Under the pieces are notes generated by a model. That model had not been told where the DNA came from. It did no database searches and worked only from the letters and a program-made list of their open reading frames with translations. Shown here piece after piece: positions 16,318-54,973 of a stretch of 64,000 nt of DNA; position 1 is the first letter of the stretch; each line of letters opens with the position of its first letter. A program made the translations under genes and the position numbers. Origin of the DNA: a bacterium (GTDB lineage: Bacteria > Patescibacteriota > Andersenbacteria > UBA10190). The stretch covers positions 22,870 to 86,869 of the forward strand of contig JBDRMS010000006.1 of NCBI GenBank assembly GCA_043811915.1. The letters are read 5' to 3'.

Positions 16318-17001
16318 ATGCAGGCGGTGGTTTTAATGGCGGGGAAGGGGACGAGGATGGCCAGGTATTATGAGGGTCCCAAGCAACTTTTGCCGATTAA
16401 GGGAAAGCCGGTGGTGGAGCACGCCCTGGATATGTTACCAGAAGAGGTGGGTGAGCTGATTTTTGTGGTAGGAGGACCCCACGAAAAGACAATCAGAGAA
16501 TATTTTAAATCGGGTGAATATAAAGGGCGACCGATTACATTTGTTGTTCAGAAGGAACAACTGGGATTAGCGCACGCGTTTGCGGCGGCCAAGGACTTAA
16601 TAAAGGGTCGTTGGCTTGGCATGGTGGGGGACGATATTTTTGGGCCGGAGGGTATGAAGGAGTTGGTGAGGCATGACTTGTCGGTGTTATCTTCAAAAGT
16701 GGAACATCCGGAGAATTGGGGAATATTGGTGACGGACGAGGAAGGATATCTGATTAAATCAGTTGAGAAGCCAAGAGAATTTGTGTCGGATCTGGCCTGG
16801 AACGGAGCCATGGTGATGGATGAGAGTTTTTTTGAAGTGAAGGTTGTACCATCGGCTCGGGGAGAGTATGAGACGCCGGATGTCTGGATGAAGCTAATTA
16901 GTGGAAAGGGAAAGAGAATAAAGGTAGTTATGGCGGACTGGTGGCTGCCGGTTAACGATAAGGAGCAGTTAGAGGAGGCAGAACGGGTGCTTGGCAAGTA
17001 A
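16318..17001 (+). CDS. sugar-phosphate nucleotidyltransferase (NTP_transferase family)
   Basis: 227 aa. N-terminal MAGKGTRM glycine-rich nucleotide-binding signature of sugar nucleotidyltransferases. Confidence 0.6.
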   Translation: MQAVVLMAGKGTRMARYYEGPKQLLPIKGKPVVEHALDMLPEEVGELIFVVGGPHEKTIREYFKSGEYKGRPITFVVQKEQLGLAHAFAAAKDLIKGRWLGMVGDDIFGPEGMKELVRHDLSVLSSKVEHPENWGILVTDEEGYLIKSVEKPREFVSDLAWNGAMVMDESFFEVKVVPSARGEYETPDVWMKLISGKGKRIKVVMADWWLPVNDKEQLEEAERVLGK

Positions 17002-17004
17002 CCC

Positions 17005-17025
17005 TATTTACACCTACGAGGTGTA
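17005..17025. repeat. left copy of 21-bp hairpin repeat (TTACACCT-acg-AGGTGTAA stem-loop)
   Basis: Perfect direct repeat of 17719-17739. Contains an 8-bp-stem/3-nt-loop palindrome. Confidence 0.7.
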
Positions 17026-17031
17026 ATGAGG

Positions 17032-17703
17032 TTACTCAAGTGTCAGCTTTCTAATCTTTGCTAGTTCGCGTTGGTAGCTAATTTGGTCGTCGACAAATTT
17101 CTTATACTCATTGGATTGGACTTCTAATAGGTTGTTGTAAGAGCACAAGTTTTCACTGCTGTGGCTTATGGATAAGTATTCTTTATAGGACGAGTACTTC
17201 CAGTCCTGTGGTCGGTCTACTAAGCTTGCTGTAACTGGATTAAGGTGGAGATAACGAGTGAGGTGTAATAATTGTTCATCAGATTTTACTGGAACGTTCT
17301 TGAACCTACCTTCCCATAAGGGCCCTCGTCTCTTGTGTTTGGTATTAAAGTAGCGTGTGTAGCTATTCAATGAGTTGCTTAGATGGCTTGATACGCCGTT
17401 GTTCCGTAGTTGTTTTACGATTAGATGAAAATGGGTTGGCATGAGGCAATAGGCGATTATTTGTGTTAGACGCGCCTGATTATCGGTAAACTTAGTAAAG
17501 TACAGCTCGAACCCATTCTCCCTTGTGTTTTTAAGGTTAAGAAACTGCGAGAATTTTGGTAGTGGTCCTACAACAGAGAAAAAACTTATCATGCGCTTCA
17601 TTCTCAGATAGTCCCGGTCGGAGTTAAAAATTTTGAAACCAGCAATGCTTTTGTTCATCACATGGTGCACGTCGCCAGTTACTATGGGGTGTTTTCGTGG
17701 CAT
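17032..17703 (-). CDS. tnpA: IS200/IS605-family Y1 (HuH) transposase / RAYT-like
   Basis: 223 aa. HuH motif (YCLMPTHFHLIV) and downstream catalytic Tyr region (LHLNPV...YSSY) typical of Transposase_17 / REP-associated tyrosine transposases. Confidence 0.7.
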   Translation of the reverse strand: MPRKHPIVTGDVHHVMNKSIAGFKIFNSDRDYLRMKRMISFFSVVGPLPKFSQFLNLKNTRENGFELYFTKFTDNQARLTQIIAYCLMPTHFHLIVKQLRNNGVSSHLSNSLNSYTRYFNTKHKRRGPLWEGRFKNVPVKSDEQLLHLTRYLHLNPVTASLVDRPQDWKYSSYKEYLSISHSSENLCSYNNLLEVQSNEYKKFVDDQISYQRELAKIRKLTLE

Positions 17704-17718
17704 GGTGTAATTTTACCA

Positions 17719-17739
17719 TATTTACACCTACGAGGTGTA
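17719..17739. repeat. right copy of 21-bp hairpin repeat
   Basis: Identical to 17005-17025. Its 7-bp stem is one base pair shorter because of the flanking base. Confidence 0.7.
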
Positions 17740-17746
17740 GATTGGT

Positions 17747-19042
17747 TTAGCCGCGTCCTACGCTGTGGTATACAAAGCCTTTTTTCTCCATTTCCTTGCG
17801 GTCGTACATGTTGCGGCCATCAATGATAATAGGGTTGTTTAGCAGGGAGGCAACTTTTTTCCAGTTGGGCTCTAAAAATTCATCCCAGTCGGTAACAATA
17901 ACCAAAGCGTCGGCTCCTTTGAGGGCTTCATACATGTTTTTTTTGTAGCGCGCTTTATTGGCTAGTACGGCACGAGCGGTTTGGGAGGCTTTTGGATCAT
18001 AGGCTTGGATAATGGCTCCATCTTCGTGTAATTGATTGACGATATTTACGGAAGGGGCATTGCGCATATCGTCGGTGTTAGGTTTGAAGGCTAACCCCCA
18101 CAGGGCAATAGTCTTGCCTTTAGTGATCCAAAGAGCCTGCTCGATTTTGCGCAGAAAAATGCGTTGGGCCTGATTGTTAATTTTTTCTACTTCTTTTAGC
18201 AAGCCGAAATCATAGCCGAGTTCTTTGGCGATGGAAATAAAAGCAGAGACGTCCTTAGGGAAGCAGCTGCCGCCATAGCCAACGCCGGCTTTAAGGAAAT
18301 GCCCGCCGATGCGTTTGTCCAGTCCCATGCCTTTGACAACCTGGTCAATATTGGCGCCGGAAAGTTCACAAATATGGGCCAGGGCGTTAGTGAAAGAGAT
18401 TTTGGCAGCCAGGAAAGAGTTACTGGCATGTTTGATGAGTTCGGCACTTTTAACATCAGTGACAATAAAAGGAGCTTTGAGGGGACGGTAAATGTCGCGC
18501 ATAATTTTTTCCGCGCGCTTGTTAGCTACGCCAACGACGATGCGGTCTGGCTTAAGAAAATCATCGACGGCATTCCCTTCACGTAGAAACTCGGGGTTGC
18601 TGACGACGTCAACATCGATAGATCTCTTGTTGTGTTGCTTGATCGTGGCTAGTACTCGCTCGCCGGTTTGTACAGGCACCGTACTTTTATCGACGATTAC
18701 TTTGTAAGAGTCGGCGGCCTCGGCTATTTGGCGGGCAGCACCAGCCACGTAGGACAGATCAGCCTGACCGTCGGGCAAGGGCGGGGTGTTAACGGCAATG
18801 AAAATAACGTCGGATTTTTTGACGGCGGCTGGCAAATTAGTGGTAAAGGTGAGACGATGGGCCTTAACGTTTTTTTGTATGAGTTTGTCCAGGCCCGGTT
18901 CGTAGATGGGGATAGTGCCATGTTTTAGTTTGGCTATTTTTTCGCGGTTATTGTCGACTAAAATGACGTTATGGCCAATTTCAGCCAGACAGGTACCTGA
19001 AACCAGGCCTACGTAGCCAGCGCCAATAAAGGTTAAATTCAT
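17747..19042 (-). CDS. ugd: UDP-glucose/GDP-mannose family nucleotide-sugar 6-dehydrogenase
   Basis: 431 aa. N-terminal Rossmann GxGxxG (FIGAGYVGLVSG), central catalytic Cys region (GGSCFPKD) and C-terminal UDP-binding domain. Confidence 0.8.
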   Translation of the reverse strand: MNLTFIGAGYVGLVSGTCLAEIGHNVILVDNNREKIAKLKHGTIPIYEPGLDKLIQKNVKAHRLTFTTNLPAAVKKSDVIFIAVNTPPLPDGQADLSYVAGAARQIAEAADSYKVIVDKSTVPVQTGERVLATIKQHNKRSIDVDVVSNPEFLREGNAVDDFLKPDRIVVGVANKRAEKIMRDIYRPLKAPFIVTDVKSAELIKHASNSFLAAKISFTNALAHICELSGANIDQVVKGMGLDKRIGGHFLKAGVGYGGSCFPKDVSAFISIAKELGYDFGLLKEVEKINNQAQRIFLRKIEQALWITKGKTIALWGLAFKPNTDDMRNAPSVNIVNQLHEDGAIIQAYDPKASQTARAVLANKARYKKNMYEALKGADALVIVTDWDEFLEPNWKKVASLLNNPIIIDGRNMYDRKEMEKKGFVYHSVGRG

Positions 19043-20236: not shown

Positions 20237-20319
20237 TGCCGGAGGTGGGACTCGAACCCACATGAGCTAAGCTCACACGATTTTGAGTCGTGCGCGTCTC
20301 CCGATTCCGCCACTCCGGC
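20237..20319 (-). tRNA. tRNA-Leu (anticodon CAA), type II with long variable arm
   Basis: Reverse complement GCCGGAGTGGCGGAATCGGGAGACGCGCACGACTCAAAATCGTGTGAGCTTAGCTCATGTGGGTTCGAGTCCCACCTCCGGCA. Has a 7-bp acceptor stem, an anticodon stem CACGA/TCGTG with loop CTCAAAA, a long variable hairpin and a GGGTTCGAGTCCC T-arm. Confidence 0.8.
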
Positions 20320-42004: not shown

Positions 42005-42472
42005 TTGTTAAAAGAGAAAAAAATTTATCGGGTGCGGGTTGAGATAGTAACGCTGTTGATATTGGTGCCGCTGGTGCTGGTGCTGGGGGCGGTGTTGAGT
42101 AGTTGGCCGCAAGACGCTGAAGAAAGTAAGCCGGCTGTTGCAGGCGAGGCACGACAAGTAGTGACGCTGAATATTCAGGGTCCTGGGGAAGTTATGGTGT
42201 ATGAGGTGGCTGTTGAGGGTGAAGCAACTGTTCGGGAGGTGTTAGAGGGGGCAGTTGTGCGAAGCGGCCTACTGCTTGACGTAAAGGACTACGGAGAGGA
42301 GTTGGGAATTTTTGTGGAAGCGATTAACGGGGTAGCAGGAGATGCCGGTCGCGGCACTTACTGGCATTTGTATATCAACGACGTATTGTCGCCGGTGGGG
42401 GCATCAACGGCCAAAGTGATGCCGGGCGACAGGATAACCTGGAAATATGAAAAACAGCATGAAGAAAATTAG
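42005..42472 (+). CDS. membrane-anchored DUF4430 (transcobalamin-like beta-domain) protein
   Basis: Start chosen at TTG 42005, preceded by AAAGGAG (41993-41999). The six-frame ORF start at 41846 would run through the riboswitch and hairpin. Has a signal anchor, then VTLNIQGPGEVMVYEVAVEGEATVREVL...GIFVEAINGVAGDAGRGTYWHLYINDVLSPVGASTAKVMPGDRITWKYE, which fits the DUF4430 pattern (G.FV..ING......W.Y.VN........Y.L..GD.I.W.Y). Confidence 0.55.
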   Translation: MLKEKKIYRVRVEIVTLLILVPLVLVLGAVLSSWPQDAEESKPAVAGEARQVVTLNIQGPGEVMVYEVAVEGEATVREVLEGAVVRSGLLLDVKDYGEELGIFVEAINGVAGDAGRGTYWHLYINDVLSPVGASTAKVMPGDRITWKYEKQHEEN

Positions 42473-44321
42473 TTTACTGGTAGTTTGTGTAGTGGGAATA
42501 GCCTGGGGCGCGTTGACGTTACAGGCGGCCGGGGAAGCAACTGTTGATTTAAGAATAGAGGGGAGCGAGAGCACAGTGTTTGCAAGGCCGGTTACAGTGT
42601 CGGATTGCAGTATTGCAGATGTAGGAGGAGTTGAGCACGAAATGTCAGGGGTGGCAGCGTGCGCTCTGGCAAAGGCGGCGGAGCAGAGCAGTTTCGAGAT
42701 GGAATTCAAGGATTTTGGCTTCGGTTTGTTTCTGGACAGAATTGGTTCGGATAGTACACCGGATGACTTTTCACAGAGCTGGTCTTTTTGGACCAATGAC
42801 AGCCCGGCCAGCGTGGGAGTTGACACCTACGAGGTGGAAGAAGGGGATAACTTATTACTGGCTTTTTCCGCCTGGCCGGCAGTGCCGCTGCGAGTGACGG
42901 GACCGGATGCGGCCGAGGCCGGCGAGACCATTACTTTTCTGGTAGAGAAGCGTGTAGGGGAATATGACGATAGCTTTATCTGGCAGGGCGGGTGGCAGGC
43001 GGCAGAAAATGCGATTTTGGATGTGGGAAGTAATGAATACCAGGTACCCGCTGACGGCGTGGTTAGAGTGACACTGGATAGCCCAGGGACAATAGCAGTG
43101 CAGGCGCGGGGAGAGGGACTGGTGCGCAGCAGCAGGCATGTAGTAGAAGTGGCGGCAGTGGTGGCGAGTCCGAGCGCGGAACCGACTGTGTCGCCAAGTC
43201 CGAACCCTAGTCCTTCATCCAGCAATAGCTCATCACCAAGCCCAAGCGTGGTGCCGGTTAGTGTTAATATGCGGCAAGACAGCGCGGGGCGGGCGCTTGT
43301 CTATCTGCGCGGGCAGCAAAGCAGTGATGGCACCATTGGCGGCTCAATGACGTCGGCCTGGAGCGCGATGGCTTTTGGGGCTGATTATCAGAGGGCACAA
43401 AATATTATGAAAGGCGGCGCTTCTTTGCTGGATGGATTAGAACAGGCTGTCTTGAGCAGTGCCACTGATGTGGAGCGGCAAATAATGGCGGTGCGGGCGG
43501 CGGGCATTAACCCAAGGTCATTTGCTGGCAGTGATTTGGTTATGGAATTAAAAAGTTATTATCGACAAGGTCAATTTGGTGAGGAGAGCCTGATTAATGA
43601 TGATGTGTTTGGTATATTGGCACTGTTGGCTGCCGAAGAGCCGATAGAATCGCCGGAAATAAGGGGGGCAGTAAAGACTGTGCTGTCTGCCCAGAAGTTT
43701 GACGGATCGTGGGATAACATTGATATGACGGCGGCGGCGGTGCAGGCGTTGAATGTTTATGCGAAACGGGGGGGCAGTATAGCAGTCGGTGGTGCAGTAA
43801 TCAGGGCGCGTGATTATTTACGTAATAGTCAGGACAAGTATGGTGGCTGGGGAGAAAATTCGGCCACGACGGCCTGGACTATTCAGGCGGTGGTGGCGCT
43901 GGGGGAGAAGGTGGATAGTTGGAAAAATAATGATGGCATGACGCCATGGCAGGCCTTGCTTCGTTATCGGAATAATAACGGTGGTTTTGGCTGGAGAGAA
44001 AAGAATGATGTGTCGGCATTTATGACGGCATACGCGGTGCCGGCGTTGCTTGGCCGGGCATGGCCGATTACTTTATTGGAATTGGAGACATCCTTGGCCA
44101 CATCTCCATTGCCGGCGGTGGCTGGTGCTGTGACGGCGATAGCTACCGTGGCGCCGGTAAGTTCTCTAGTGCCAGAGGTGGTATCGGAAGAGGTGGCTAA
44201 TGTTAATGTTGGTGATGATTTTGTTGCGCCCAGGGCGGTGGACCGTAACTTTGCGATTACTTTATTTGGTTTAGCTAATTTGGGTATTGGGGTGGCGGTG
44301 GCTAGAATGATTTTGATATGA
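42447..44321 (+). CDS. secreted DUF4430 + alpha/alpha-toroid (prenyltransferase/terpene-cyclase-like repeat) protein with C-terminal membrane anchor; transcobalamin-like architecture
   Basis: 624 aa. Signal peptide, N-terminal DUF4430-like beta domain (TVDLRIEGSESTVFARPVTV...SWSFWTNDSPASVGVDTYEVEEGDNLLLAFS) and a Ser/Pro linker. Repeated aromatic/Gly-Trp motifs of alpha/alpha-toroid repeats follow (SDGTIGGSMTSAWSAMAF, KYGGWGENSATTAWTIQAV, NNGGFGWREKNDVSAFMTAYAVPAL), then a C-terminal hydrophobic anchor. Confidence 0.55.
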   Translation: MKNSMKKISLLVVCVVGIAWGALTLQAAGEATVDLRIEGSESTVFARPVTVSDCSIADVGGVEHEMSGVAACALAKAAEQSSFEMEFKDFGFGLFLDRIGSDSTPDDFSQSWSFWTNDSPASVGVDTYEVEEGDNLLLAFSAWPAVPLRVTGPDAAEAGETITFLVEKRVGEYDDSFIWQGGWQAAENAILDVGSNEYQVPADGVVRVTLDSPGTIAVQARGEGLVRSSRHVVEVAAVVASPSAEPTVSPSPNPSPSSSNSSSPSPSVVPVSVNMRQDSAGRALVYLRGQQSSDGTIGGSMTSAWSAMAFGADYQRAQNIMKGGASLLDGLEQAVLSSATDVERQIMAVRAAGINPRSFAGSDLVMELKSYYRQGQFGEESLINDDVFGILALLAAEEPIESPEIRGAVKTVLSAQKFDGSWDNIDMTAAAVQALNVYAKRGGSIAVGGAVIRARDYLRNSQDKYGGWGENSATTAWTIQAVVALGEKVDSWKNNDGMTPWQALLRYRNNNGGFGWREKNDVSAFMTAYAVPALLGRAWPITLLELETSLATSPLPAVAGAVTAIATVAPVSSLVPEVVSEEVANVNVGDDFVAPRAVDRNFAITLFGLANLGIGVAVARMILI

Positions 44322-50025: not shown

Positions 50026-50118
50026 GGGGACGTAGATCAATTGGGAGATCACTCCAGCTGGCCGCAAATGTGCACTATGCGGCAGGAGAGGTTAGGGGTT
50101 CGATTCCCTTCGTCTCCA
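50026..50118 (+). tRNA. aberrant tRNA-like element (~92 nt): canonical acceptor, D- and T-arms but an expanded bulged hairpin in place of a standard anticodon arm
   Basis: Acceptor GGGGACG/CGTCTCC (one G.U) with discriminator A. D-arm GATC-AATTGGGA-GATC. T-arm AGGGG-TTCGATT-CCCTT. The central 43 nt form CTCC..GCCGCA-aatgtgcacta-TGCGGC..GGAG rather than a 5-bp/7-nt anticodon arm. Confidence 0.4.
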
Positions 50119-54902: not shown

Positions 54903-54973
54903 CGGGGTGTAGTATAGTGGTAGTACGCAAGGCTGGGGGTCTTGTAGTCCGGGTCCGATTCCCGGCACCCCGA
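54903..54973 (+). tRNA. tRNA-Pro (anticodon GGG)
   Basis: Sequence CGGGGTG-TA-GTAT-AGTGGTA-GTAC-G-CAAGG-CTGGGGG-TCTTG-TAGT-CCGGG-TCCGATT-CCCGG-CACCCCG-A. All four arms are canonical and the anticodon loop CTGGGGG gives GGG. Confidence 0.75.

Follow-up and report, generated by a model that had tools for sequence, protein, structure and literature searches.

A probable minimal REPtron/TIRtron-like unit in an Andersenbacteria-like genome: a class 2 TnpA_Y1 gene bracketed by two cognate palindromic repeats

The DNA considered here (the window) comprises 64,000 nucleotides of contig JBDRMS010000006.1 from assembly GCA_043811915.1, and our analysis concerns a short unit within it, in which a gene for a Y1 HUH protein resembling the REP-associated tyrosine transposases (RAYTs; REP, repetitive extragenic palindrome) is bracketed by two hairpins. 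The unit lies between two convergent genes, encoding a nucleoside triphosphate (NTP) transferase and a UDP-glucose/GDP-mannose dehydrogenase, and the host of the insertion is an Andersenbacteria-like bacterium of the candidate phyla radiation (CPR). The window's NTP-transferase has a 100% identical counterpart on a 162-kb NCBI contig of a metagenome-assembled genome, and its relatives are named Candidatus Andersenbacteria. As a separate Logan assembly (L003) shows the identical arrangement, the locus is not an assembly artefact. On the evidence presented below, we consider it probable that the locus is a minimal REPtron/TIRtron-like unit, namely a class 2 TnpA_Y1 gene between two cognate palindromic repeats, acquired as an insertion of about 745 bp. 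The features of the locus and its surroundings are as follows.

17032..17703, minus strand: gene for a RAYT-like Y1 HUH single-strand DNA endonuclease/transposase, an open reading frame (ORF) of 223 amino acids (aa)
17002..17746: inserted unit (hairpin, gene, hairpin), the 745 nt separating the two convergent stop codons
16997..17036: hairpin 3' of the gene, with an inner 8-bp stem and ACG loop at 17008-17026, TTACACCT-ACG-AGGTGTAA; free energy (dG) -10.3, covariance model E 1.6e-8
17715..17746: hairpin 5' of the gene, with an inner stem-loop at 17722-17739 and feet ACCA/TGGT; dG -7.6, covariance model E 6e-8
17710..17715, minus strand: -10-like hexamer TAAAAT, 6 nt ahead of the ATG, between the upstream hairpin and the start
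16318-17001, plus strand: NTP_transferase-family gene, on one side of the Y1 ORF
17747-19042, minus strand: UDP-glucose/GDP-mannose dehydrogenase gene, on the other side of the Y1 ORF and convergent with the NTP_transferase gene
20237-20319, 50026-50118 and 54903-54973: three tRNA genes, the sole Rfam matches in the window

Both hairpins are built on a 21-mer, TATTTACACCTACGAGGTGTA, of which the window has exactly two copies, 17005-17025 and 17719-17739, each on the plus strand. This agrees with a preliminary description of the sequence, in which two identical hairpin copies of the same orientation were said to bracket the gene. The number of matches expected by chance, with up to three mismatches permitted, is 0 in 100 dinucleotide shuffles, and the repeat can be lengthened to 25 nt, ACC[C/A]TATTTACACCTACGAGGTGTA, at 96% identity. 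When folded as single-stranded DNA (ssDNA), both copies adopt the same two-tier structure, in which an inner stem of 8 bp with a 3-nt loop is joined through an internal loop to an outer stem of 4-7 bp. The folding energy is -10.3 kcal/mol for the left hairpin (z -5.6) and -7.6 kcal/mol for the right one (z -6.5), the complementary strand gives similar energies, and an equally good fold was reached in 0 of 200 shuffles. The inner stem of the left copy is perfect over 8 bp, with the loop ACG; in the right copy, the last pair is not Watson-Crick, as the end ...GTAG replaces ...GTAA. The outer stem of the left hairpin (7 bp, AGTAACC/GGTTACT) holds the stops of both genes that converge on it (TAA at 16999-17001 and TTA at 17032-17034), and in many homologs the TAA stop of the gene likewise lies within a TAACC foot. 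The hairpin on the 5' side stands 16-19 nt from the start codon. In the Rfam scan of the window there was no match at the hairpins, nor did a consensus promoter and terminator scan call anything there. A third near-match, GACACCTACGAGGTGGA at 42820-42846 (core 42822-42838, two mismatches, ACG loop), was rejected as probably a chance occurrence, its covariance model E being 0.53; it sits in a 624-aa ORF (42447-44321), where it encodes VDTYEVEE.

By its motifs, profile matches and predicted fold, the 223-aa protein is a Y1 HUH enzyme, in line with the Y1 hallmarks that had been noted earlier. The HUH motif reads T90-H91-F92-H93, the catalytic tyrosine is Y151 in RYLHLNP, the tryptophan motif is PLWE (W130) and the tail carries W168-x-Y-S-S-Y. 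H91, H93, Y151, N155 and W130 are invariant across 120 homologs, P156 is conserved in at least 90%, and the motifs of the family as a whole can be written T-H-u-H, PLWE, Y-[LIV]-H-L-N-P and W-x-x-S-S-Y. In the published TnpA_Y1 classification (Quentin et al. 2018, PMC6006769), the tyrosine motif is Y-x3-NP in the RAYT-like class 2 and Y-x3-Q in the IS200 class 1. The Y151-L-H-L-N155-P156 of the window protein is the Y-x3-NP of class 2 and not Y-x3-Q, and the WE and SS motifs also match class 2, within which the motifs appear, judged on sequence, closest to those of subclass 2.1, that is, Bertels Group 1.

Profile and structure comparisons point in the same direction. REP_Tyr_transpos (NF047646) is the sole NCBIfam match of the window protein and of all 24 family members tested (best E 1e-20), and a precomputed match to the Pfam family PF01797 is present in most homologs. 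The best PDB match is 4ER8, the E. coli TnpA_REP, with an E of 0.002 by single sequence and 7e-6 by family profile. The alignments with 4ER8 cover both the HUH and the tyrosine motif, whereas ISDra2 TnpA aligns over the HUH half only; H91-F-H93 is aligned with the HMH of 4ER8 and the HVH of ISDra2, and Y151 with the YIYINP of 4ER8. For the fold, an AlphaFold2 model computed from 120 homologs (predicted local distance difference test, pLDDT, 93; predicted template modelling score, pTM, 0.89) was preferred to a run with 24 sequences (pLDDT 51.6). Searched against the PDB with Foldseek, the model again matches 4ER8 best (E 4e-7, TMt 0.67), followed by the IS608 and ISDra2 transposases, and the first 30 matches are all Y1 transposases. 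The model places Y151 in the helix formed by residues 142-153. The protein has extra N- and C-terminal parts, and no helix-turn-helix (HTH) or DnaA_C match to Pfam was obtained for it at E<=0.01.

The family of the gene is large: we recovered more than 2,100 homologs, 415 of them in species-representative genomes (in that scan, the best 80 matches were kept, and the genome of the window lies outside those 80), and most belong to Patescibacteria and Omnitrophota. The homologs are typically about 220-226 aa long and 52-60% identical to the window protein, and a full HMMER scan yielded 673 clusters at 50% identity with E<=1e-30. Two matching hairpins flank about 70 of the 85 homologous genes that we examined in these two groups, so that the hairpin is conserved in related elements and is not peculiar to this locus. 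The 141 hairpins collected beside related genes lie 10-45 nt ahead of the start or 0-25 nt past the stop. The two hairpins of one locus are alike, with identical 19-nt cores in 23 of 56 pairs from related loci, and the hairpin sequence varies from locus to locus.

This variation preserves pairing. In a gap-free alignment of 118 distinct hairpins with a 9-bp stem, 93% of the stem cells are paired, compared with 66.5% in shuffles, and double (compensatory) changes are seen at 9 of 9 pairs. The percentage paired should be read as inflated by selection, as the hairpins were collected by looking for hairpins, but this bias leaves the diversity of pair types unaffected. The covariation score is 0.705, as compared to 0.218 in shuffles (a value of that size was reached by 0 of 500), and slid controls do not exceed 0.154. 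The apex consensus is CACC-YC-N-GR-GGTG (CACC..GGTG) and the feet are ACC/GGT, which in the position profile of the 141 hairpins appear as ACC at -15..-13 and GG(T) at +13..+15. As the hairpins are almost perfectly symmetric, both strands offer nearly one and the same structure, in contrast to GTAG-tagged REPs and to IS200/IS605 ends, and the symmetric profiles contain no strand-specific foot motif of the guide-sequence kind. The flanking hairpins are direct at 34 loci, inverted at 15 and undecidable at 4 of the 53 considered, so that the direct arrangement is common but no rule; the same orientation that had been noted for the two copies thus holds in the window but not for the family.

Several further observations concern the hairpins and genes of related loci. 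About one third of the family hairpins have an apex of the form CCTACG[A/C]GG or CC[T/G]CGTAGG, so that one strand has a GTAG within its loop and 3' arm, and the rest have CCCC[N]GGGG. In the window, the minus strand at 17016-17021 reads CGTAGG, again with a GTAG in that position. Both apex classes have been found on the same stem, as a comparison of the window with the related locus L186 shows. One locus (L018, 61-1458) carries two tandem family genes that are 53% identical, with a common hairpin between them and outer hairpins each of a different type. At two others (L040 and L049), the gene has on either side a 42-nt perfect double palindrome, ACCCATCCGACCTCGTAGGTCGACCTACGAGGTCGGATGGGT; this resembles a head-to-head fusion of two hairpin units, so that the flanking repeat looks to be a REPIN-like dimer. 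A different arrangement is seen at the P0017 locus (L201-L210), where the Y1 gene stands in a same-strand row, overlaps the downstream maf by 4 nt and has an extended C-terminus (234 aa); this looks embedded in an operon rather than inserted.

Hairpins of the family also occur away from the gene. Probing with locus-specific hairpins recovered 46 extra copies in 30 of 82 loci, with a chance expectation of about 2e-4 per locus; one locus (L077) has up to five solitary copies within 20 kb, and inverted doublets with 6-7-nt spacers, which are REPIN-like, were found at L053, L033, L037 and L015. In metagenomes, the window's 19-nt hairpin, TTACACCTACGAGGTGTAA, was found without mismatch 123 times, on 101 contigs; 19 of these copies lie beside a Y1 homolog and the other 104 stand alone, with no Y1 gene nearby. 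Many of the copies, from a few samples, have the extended palindrome CCCCATTT-hairpin-AAATGGGG in common. The solitary copies for which the preliminary description had suggested a search are therefore present elsewhere but absent from the 64-kb window. On many metagenome contigs, the hairpin was also seen nested in a second, related palindrome as a compound repeat, TTACACCTCnGCnC-TTACACCTACGAGGTGTAA-TACCCGAGGTGTAA (L090, L092, L101, L112, L129, L130, L134, L140, L149, L163, L167, L174 and L178), and at L167 the compound repeat adjoins a more distant Y1 homolog (37% identity).

That the unit was inserted can be seen from relatives with the shared gene order FG-GAP protein, NTP-transferase, UDP-glucose dehydrogenase and major facilitator superfamily (MFS) protein, which were compared at the insertion site. 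The convergent genes, with no Y1 gene between them, are separated by 28 nt in L185 (NTP-transferase 87% identical), by 42 nt in L187/L188 (79%) and by 16 nt in L189/L190 (77%), and the family hairpin is absent from all of these empty sites. In L186 (85%), the stop codon is directly followed by TAACC-TTC-TTTACACCCCGGGGGTGTAAA-GAA-GGT and then by the C-terminus of a Y1 gene (..RELSTIKKLILE, then the stop); the site is thus occupied as in the window, but by a different apex variant. As syntenic relatives have empty sites, the 745-nt unit is an insertion that is polymorphic among close relatives, and the insertion between convergent sugar-nucleotide genes proposed at the outset is borne out. The GC profile gives 0.40-0.42 for the inserted interval and 0.46-0.53 for the flanking genes. 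In the window, parA and parB lie just past the MFS gene.

Copy number is low and position is mostly fixed. Two homologs could be followed over 18 and 16 contigs from many samples, and in each case identical proteins always had one context. Paralogs within a genome are 53-62% identical (family median 55%), each with its own hairpin type. No near-identical copies in different contexts were seen, and the window holds one copy, although no complete genome was scanned in full. Related Y1 genes are mostly syntenic; next to alaS (L013, L020 and L078), the Y1 proteins are 73-79% identical, compared with 48-59% for the flanking PilM-like and AlaRS proteins, which, as far as these sequences indicate, is more than is usual for an annotated transposase gene. 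A few Y1 pairs are 71-92% identical without common flanking genes. A scan of IMG/VR gave no relatives, and plasmid and phage collections gave only distant partial matches (25-43% identity) and no full-length relatives. These data point to a stable gene that is mostly inherited vertically and occasionally relocated, which is the pattern described for RAYTs (Bertels et al. 2017).

The region between the upstream hairpin and the gene suggests a leaderless transcript from a promoter abutting that hairpin, as far as can be judged from sequence. No Shine-Dalgarno sequence is present upstream of the window gene, and the TAAAAT box listed above was not called by the consensus promoter scan. In about 20 Patescibacteria homologs, TATAAT-like hexamers lie 6-17 nt ahead of the ATG, and in Omnitrophota homologs GGAGG-like sites are found instead. 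As the putative promoter abuts the upstream hairpin, autoregulation is plausible. An extra TTACACC half-site directly adjoins the ATG (17704-17715, minus strand).

On the reading that we prefer, of a REPtron/TIRtron-like unit, the protein most likely recognizes the hairpins on ssDNA, with specificity probably set by the CACC..GGTG apex together with the ACC/GGT feet. Each repeat would fold into its two-tier hairpin when the DNA is single-stranded, for example at a replication fork, and the protein would bind the folded form. The HUH-bound metal and Tyr151 would then cut nearby, by way of a 5'-phosphotyrosine link, and rejoin the strands. The same activity could copy hairpins to new sites, giving the solitary REP-like copies and REPIN-like doublets of other genomes, and the unit of hairpin, gene and hairpin may have been moved by the same chemistry. 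This scheme is modelled on IS608, ISDra2 and the E. coli TnpA_REP (PMC8266576), and it is from this model that we infer binding, the chemistry and position of cleavage, and whether the gene may still move.

Several results weigh against this interpretation and should be considered. The score of the window protein with Pfam Y1_Tnp (PF01797) is 22.9 bits, just under the cut-off of 23.0, and with REP_Tyr_transpos it is 64.2 bits, under the equivalog cut-off of 80. The profile of 141 hairpins contains no GT[AG]G foot and describes near-perfect palindromes with symmetric ACC/GGT feet. The hairpins are direct in the window and at 34 of the 53 informative loci, unlike classical REPtrons, in which the REPs are inverted. 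Finally, the window lacks any solitary hairpin copy: our hairpin covariance model (R1), run over all 64 kb, returned only the two gene-flanking sites (E ~1e-8), the next best being at E 0.53, and REP-like spread is accordingly not shown for this genome. As for the foot, non-GTAG atypical structures have been accepted for subclasses 2.6 and 3 (PMC6006769).

A related possibility, which we put forward tentatively and with more doubt than belief, is that the family stands midway between IS200-like elements and domesticated RAYT/REPIN systems, as a transitional form whose cassette could still relocate as a unit while seeding solitary and doublet hairpins. Relocation would then proceed by HUH-mediated single-strand excision and integration at the two identical hairpins, a logic resembling that of integron cassettes but with a Y1 nuclease. 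If this were true, the cassette would be under strong purifying selection in most lineages, with a conservation above that of neighbouring housekeeping genes, and this would hint at a host function in reduced genomes.

It is unlikely, in our estimation, that the unit is an autonomous insertion sequence of the IS200 group, with the same-strand hairpins as its ends, which excises as a single-stranded circle of 0.74 kb and reinserts (peel and paste). The preliminary description had used the label IS200/IS605-like, with a REP/RAYT unit as the alternative. A compact unit whose limits lie exactly at the hairpins, and a fold common to the TnpA proteins of IS608 and ISDra2, would suit such an element, yet the tyrosine motif is Y-x3-NP rather than the class 1 Y-x3-Q (PMC6006769), the best matches are to RAYT and not to IS200, and the palindromes at the two ends are identical, with no distinction between a left and a right end. 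Direct hairpins here and at 34 loci are in its favor, but those at 15 loci are inverted. Also in its favor are the presence/absence polymorphism among close relatives, the lower GC of the insert and the Y1 pairs of 71-92% identity that have no common flanking genes; against it stand the single context of identical proteins, the divergence of within-genome paralogs (53-62%) with no near-identical multicopy seen, the spread of the hairpin without the gene and the lack of full-length relatives in the plasmid and phage collections. The IS200/IS605 label is thus ill-fitting and too narrow for a 223-aa Y-x3-NP protein whose best structural match is 4ER8 and whose only NCBIfam match is REP_Tyr_transpos, and the alternative of a REP/RAYT unit, right in kind, is the better reading in view of the low copy number, divergent paralogs and fixed location. 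Nor does recent activity follow from the perfect identity of the two ends, as had been suggested, because the 19-nt cores are identical in 23 of 56 related loci as well.

We regard it as quite improbable that the hairpins are mainly regulatory or act at the RNA level, as a promoter operator upstream and as a stabilizer or terminator on the 3' side, for a domesticated protein with a role other than repeat mobilization. The upstream hairpin does adjoin the -10-like box of an apparently leaderless gene, and the downstream one begins 0-25 nt past the stop in most loci and overlaps it here; however, neither a T-run nor any called terminator or promoter is found at the hairpins, and the same hairpins occur solitary or as doublets far from the gene. 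Domestication would agree with orthologs that outdo neighbouring genes in conservation and with a single fixed locus in populations, but the catalytic HUH and Tyr do not vary in any of 120 sequences, a constancy that speaks for DNA cleavage chemistry, and a regulatory role and a role as substrate are not mutually exclusive. That the repeat is a target-site or att-type duplication left by an unrelated integration, with the Y1 gene as a passenger, is very improbable and largely refuted: identical direct repeats of 21-25 nt at the insertion borders do resemble attL/attR or a long target duplication, but the empty sites of relatives hold no hairpin copy, the repeats are inverted at 15 loci, the same arrangement of hairpin, gene and hairpin, with covarying stems, is found in about 70 unrelated contexts and the unit has no integrase gene.

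To our knowledge, work on RAYT/REP systems has dealt almost exclusively with Proteobacteria and Cyanobacteria, and the repeats have been defined by the GTAG foot. The present family, which is restricted to little-studied phyla, combines a highly conserved Y1 nuclease with an unusual repeat, a nearly perfect palindromic, non-GTAG hairpin that covaries with the protein, in ultra-small, reduced genomes. It thereby offers, in compact form, a natural set of cognate protein-hairpin pairs with which specificity can be studied. The occurrence of gene-bounded units and dispersed REPIN-like copies in one family bears on the origin of REPINs from transposase ends. When CPR genomes are annotated, genes of this kind should be taken as RAYT-like with flanking cognate repeats and not as evidence of active IS200 elements.

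Among known systems, the closest likeness is to the E. coli TnpA_REP with its REP/BIME (bacterial interspersed mosaic element) sequences, the REPtron (4ER8; Corneloup 2021, PMC8266576), reportedly described by Nunvar in 2010 and by Ton-Hoang and Messing in 2012. This protein is the best match in sequence, profile and fold and has the HUH and Y-x3-NP motifs, its cognate hairpins flank the gene, solitary copies and inverted doublets are dispersed in some genomes, and low copy number, a stable locus and divergent paralogs with their own repeat type are also common to both. The present family differs in lacking the GT[AG]G foot, having instead near-perfect palindromes with ACC/GGT feet and a CACC..GGTG apex, and in flanking repeats that are more often direct than inverted. 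The window protein has 223 aa, as compared to the 165 aa of the E. coli protein, with an insertion of about 30 aa preceding the HUH strand, and a long C-terminal helix; its HUH motif is preceded by T instead of D/N, and its score is under the NCBIfam equivalog cut-off; the hosts of the family are Patescibacteria and Omnitrophota. The REPtron Sm of S. maltophilia (Group 3 RAYT; PMC8266576) has a perfect 8-bp palindrome with a 3-nt loop, which is the geometry of the inner hairpin here, but in Sm a GTAG stands immediately ahead of the REP and cleavage occurs at CT, and no 5' GTAG foot is present in our case.

IS200/IS605 transposases (IS608, ISDra2 and IS200; class 1) have the HUH/Y1 fold in common with the window protein, the unit of about 0.7 kb is like IS200, and their recognition of subterminal ssDNA hairpins is the model for the mechanism. 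They differ in having Y-x3-Q rather than Y-x3-NP and a core of about 150 aa rather than 223 aa; our unit has no tnpB, and the family lacks multicopy identical elements, has identical palindromes as ends and has hairpins that spread without the gene. A further mark of IS200/IS605 elements is a pair of distinct subterminal hairpins, left and right, on one strand, with a tetranucleotide target and guide; the two hairpins here do lie on one strand, but they are identical, and those of 15 related loci are inverted.

The likeness to subclass 2.1 (Bertels Group 1, TIRYT), which was judged by motifs, length and flanks, lies in the length (the subclass median is 238 aa), the Y[IV]HLNP-type tyrosine motif, W[EQ] and the SS tail. 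As in the TIRtron (Di Nocera 2013, PMC3733652), the flanking repeats are non-GTAG, partly self-complementary and sometimes form moderate repeat families. On the other hand, T-H-u-H is found here and N-H-u-H there, no Pfam DnaA_C/HTH-like C-terminal domain was detected here, and the flank motif GGGGWSAS is matched inexactly, by GGGGTG[TG]. In addition, no REP-like structures were found for subclass 2.1 by Quentin et al. (PMC6006769), whereas hairpins are near-universal in the present family. Our search of the literature on RAYTs with CPR or Omnitrophota found no description of this family, and one preprint contained only a KEGG K07491 match near rbcL in an archaeon. The unit is best filed under the class 2 TnpA_Y1 systems, possibly as a new subclass: the kind of system is already known, and the family is a large and little described one in ultra-small bacteria.

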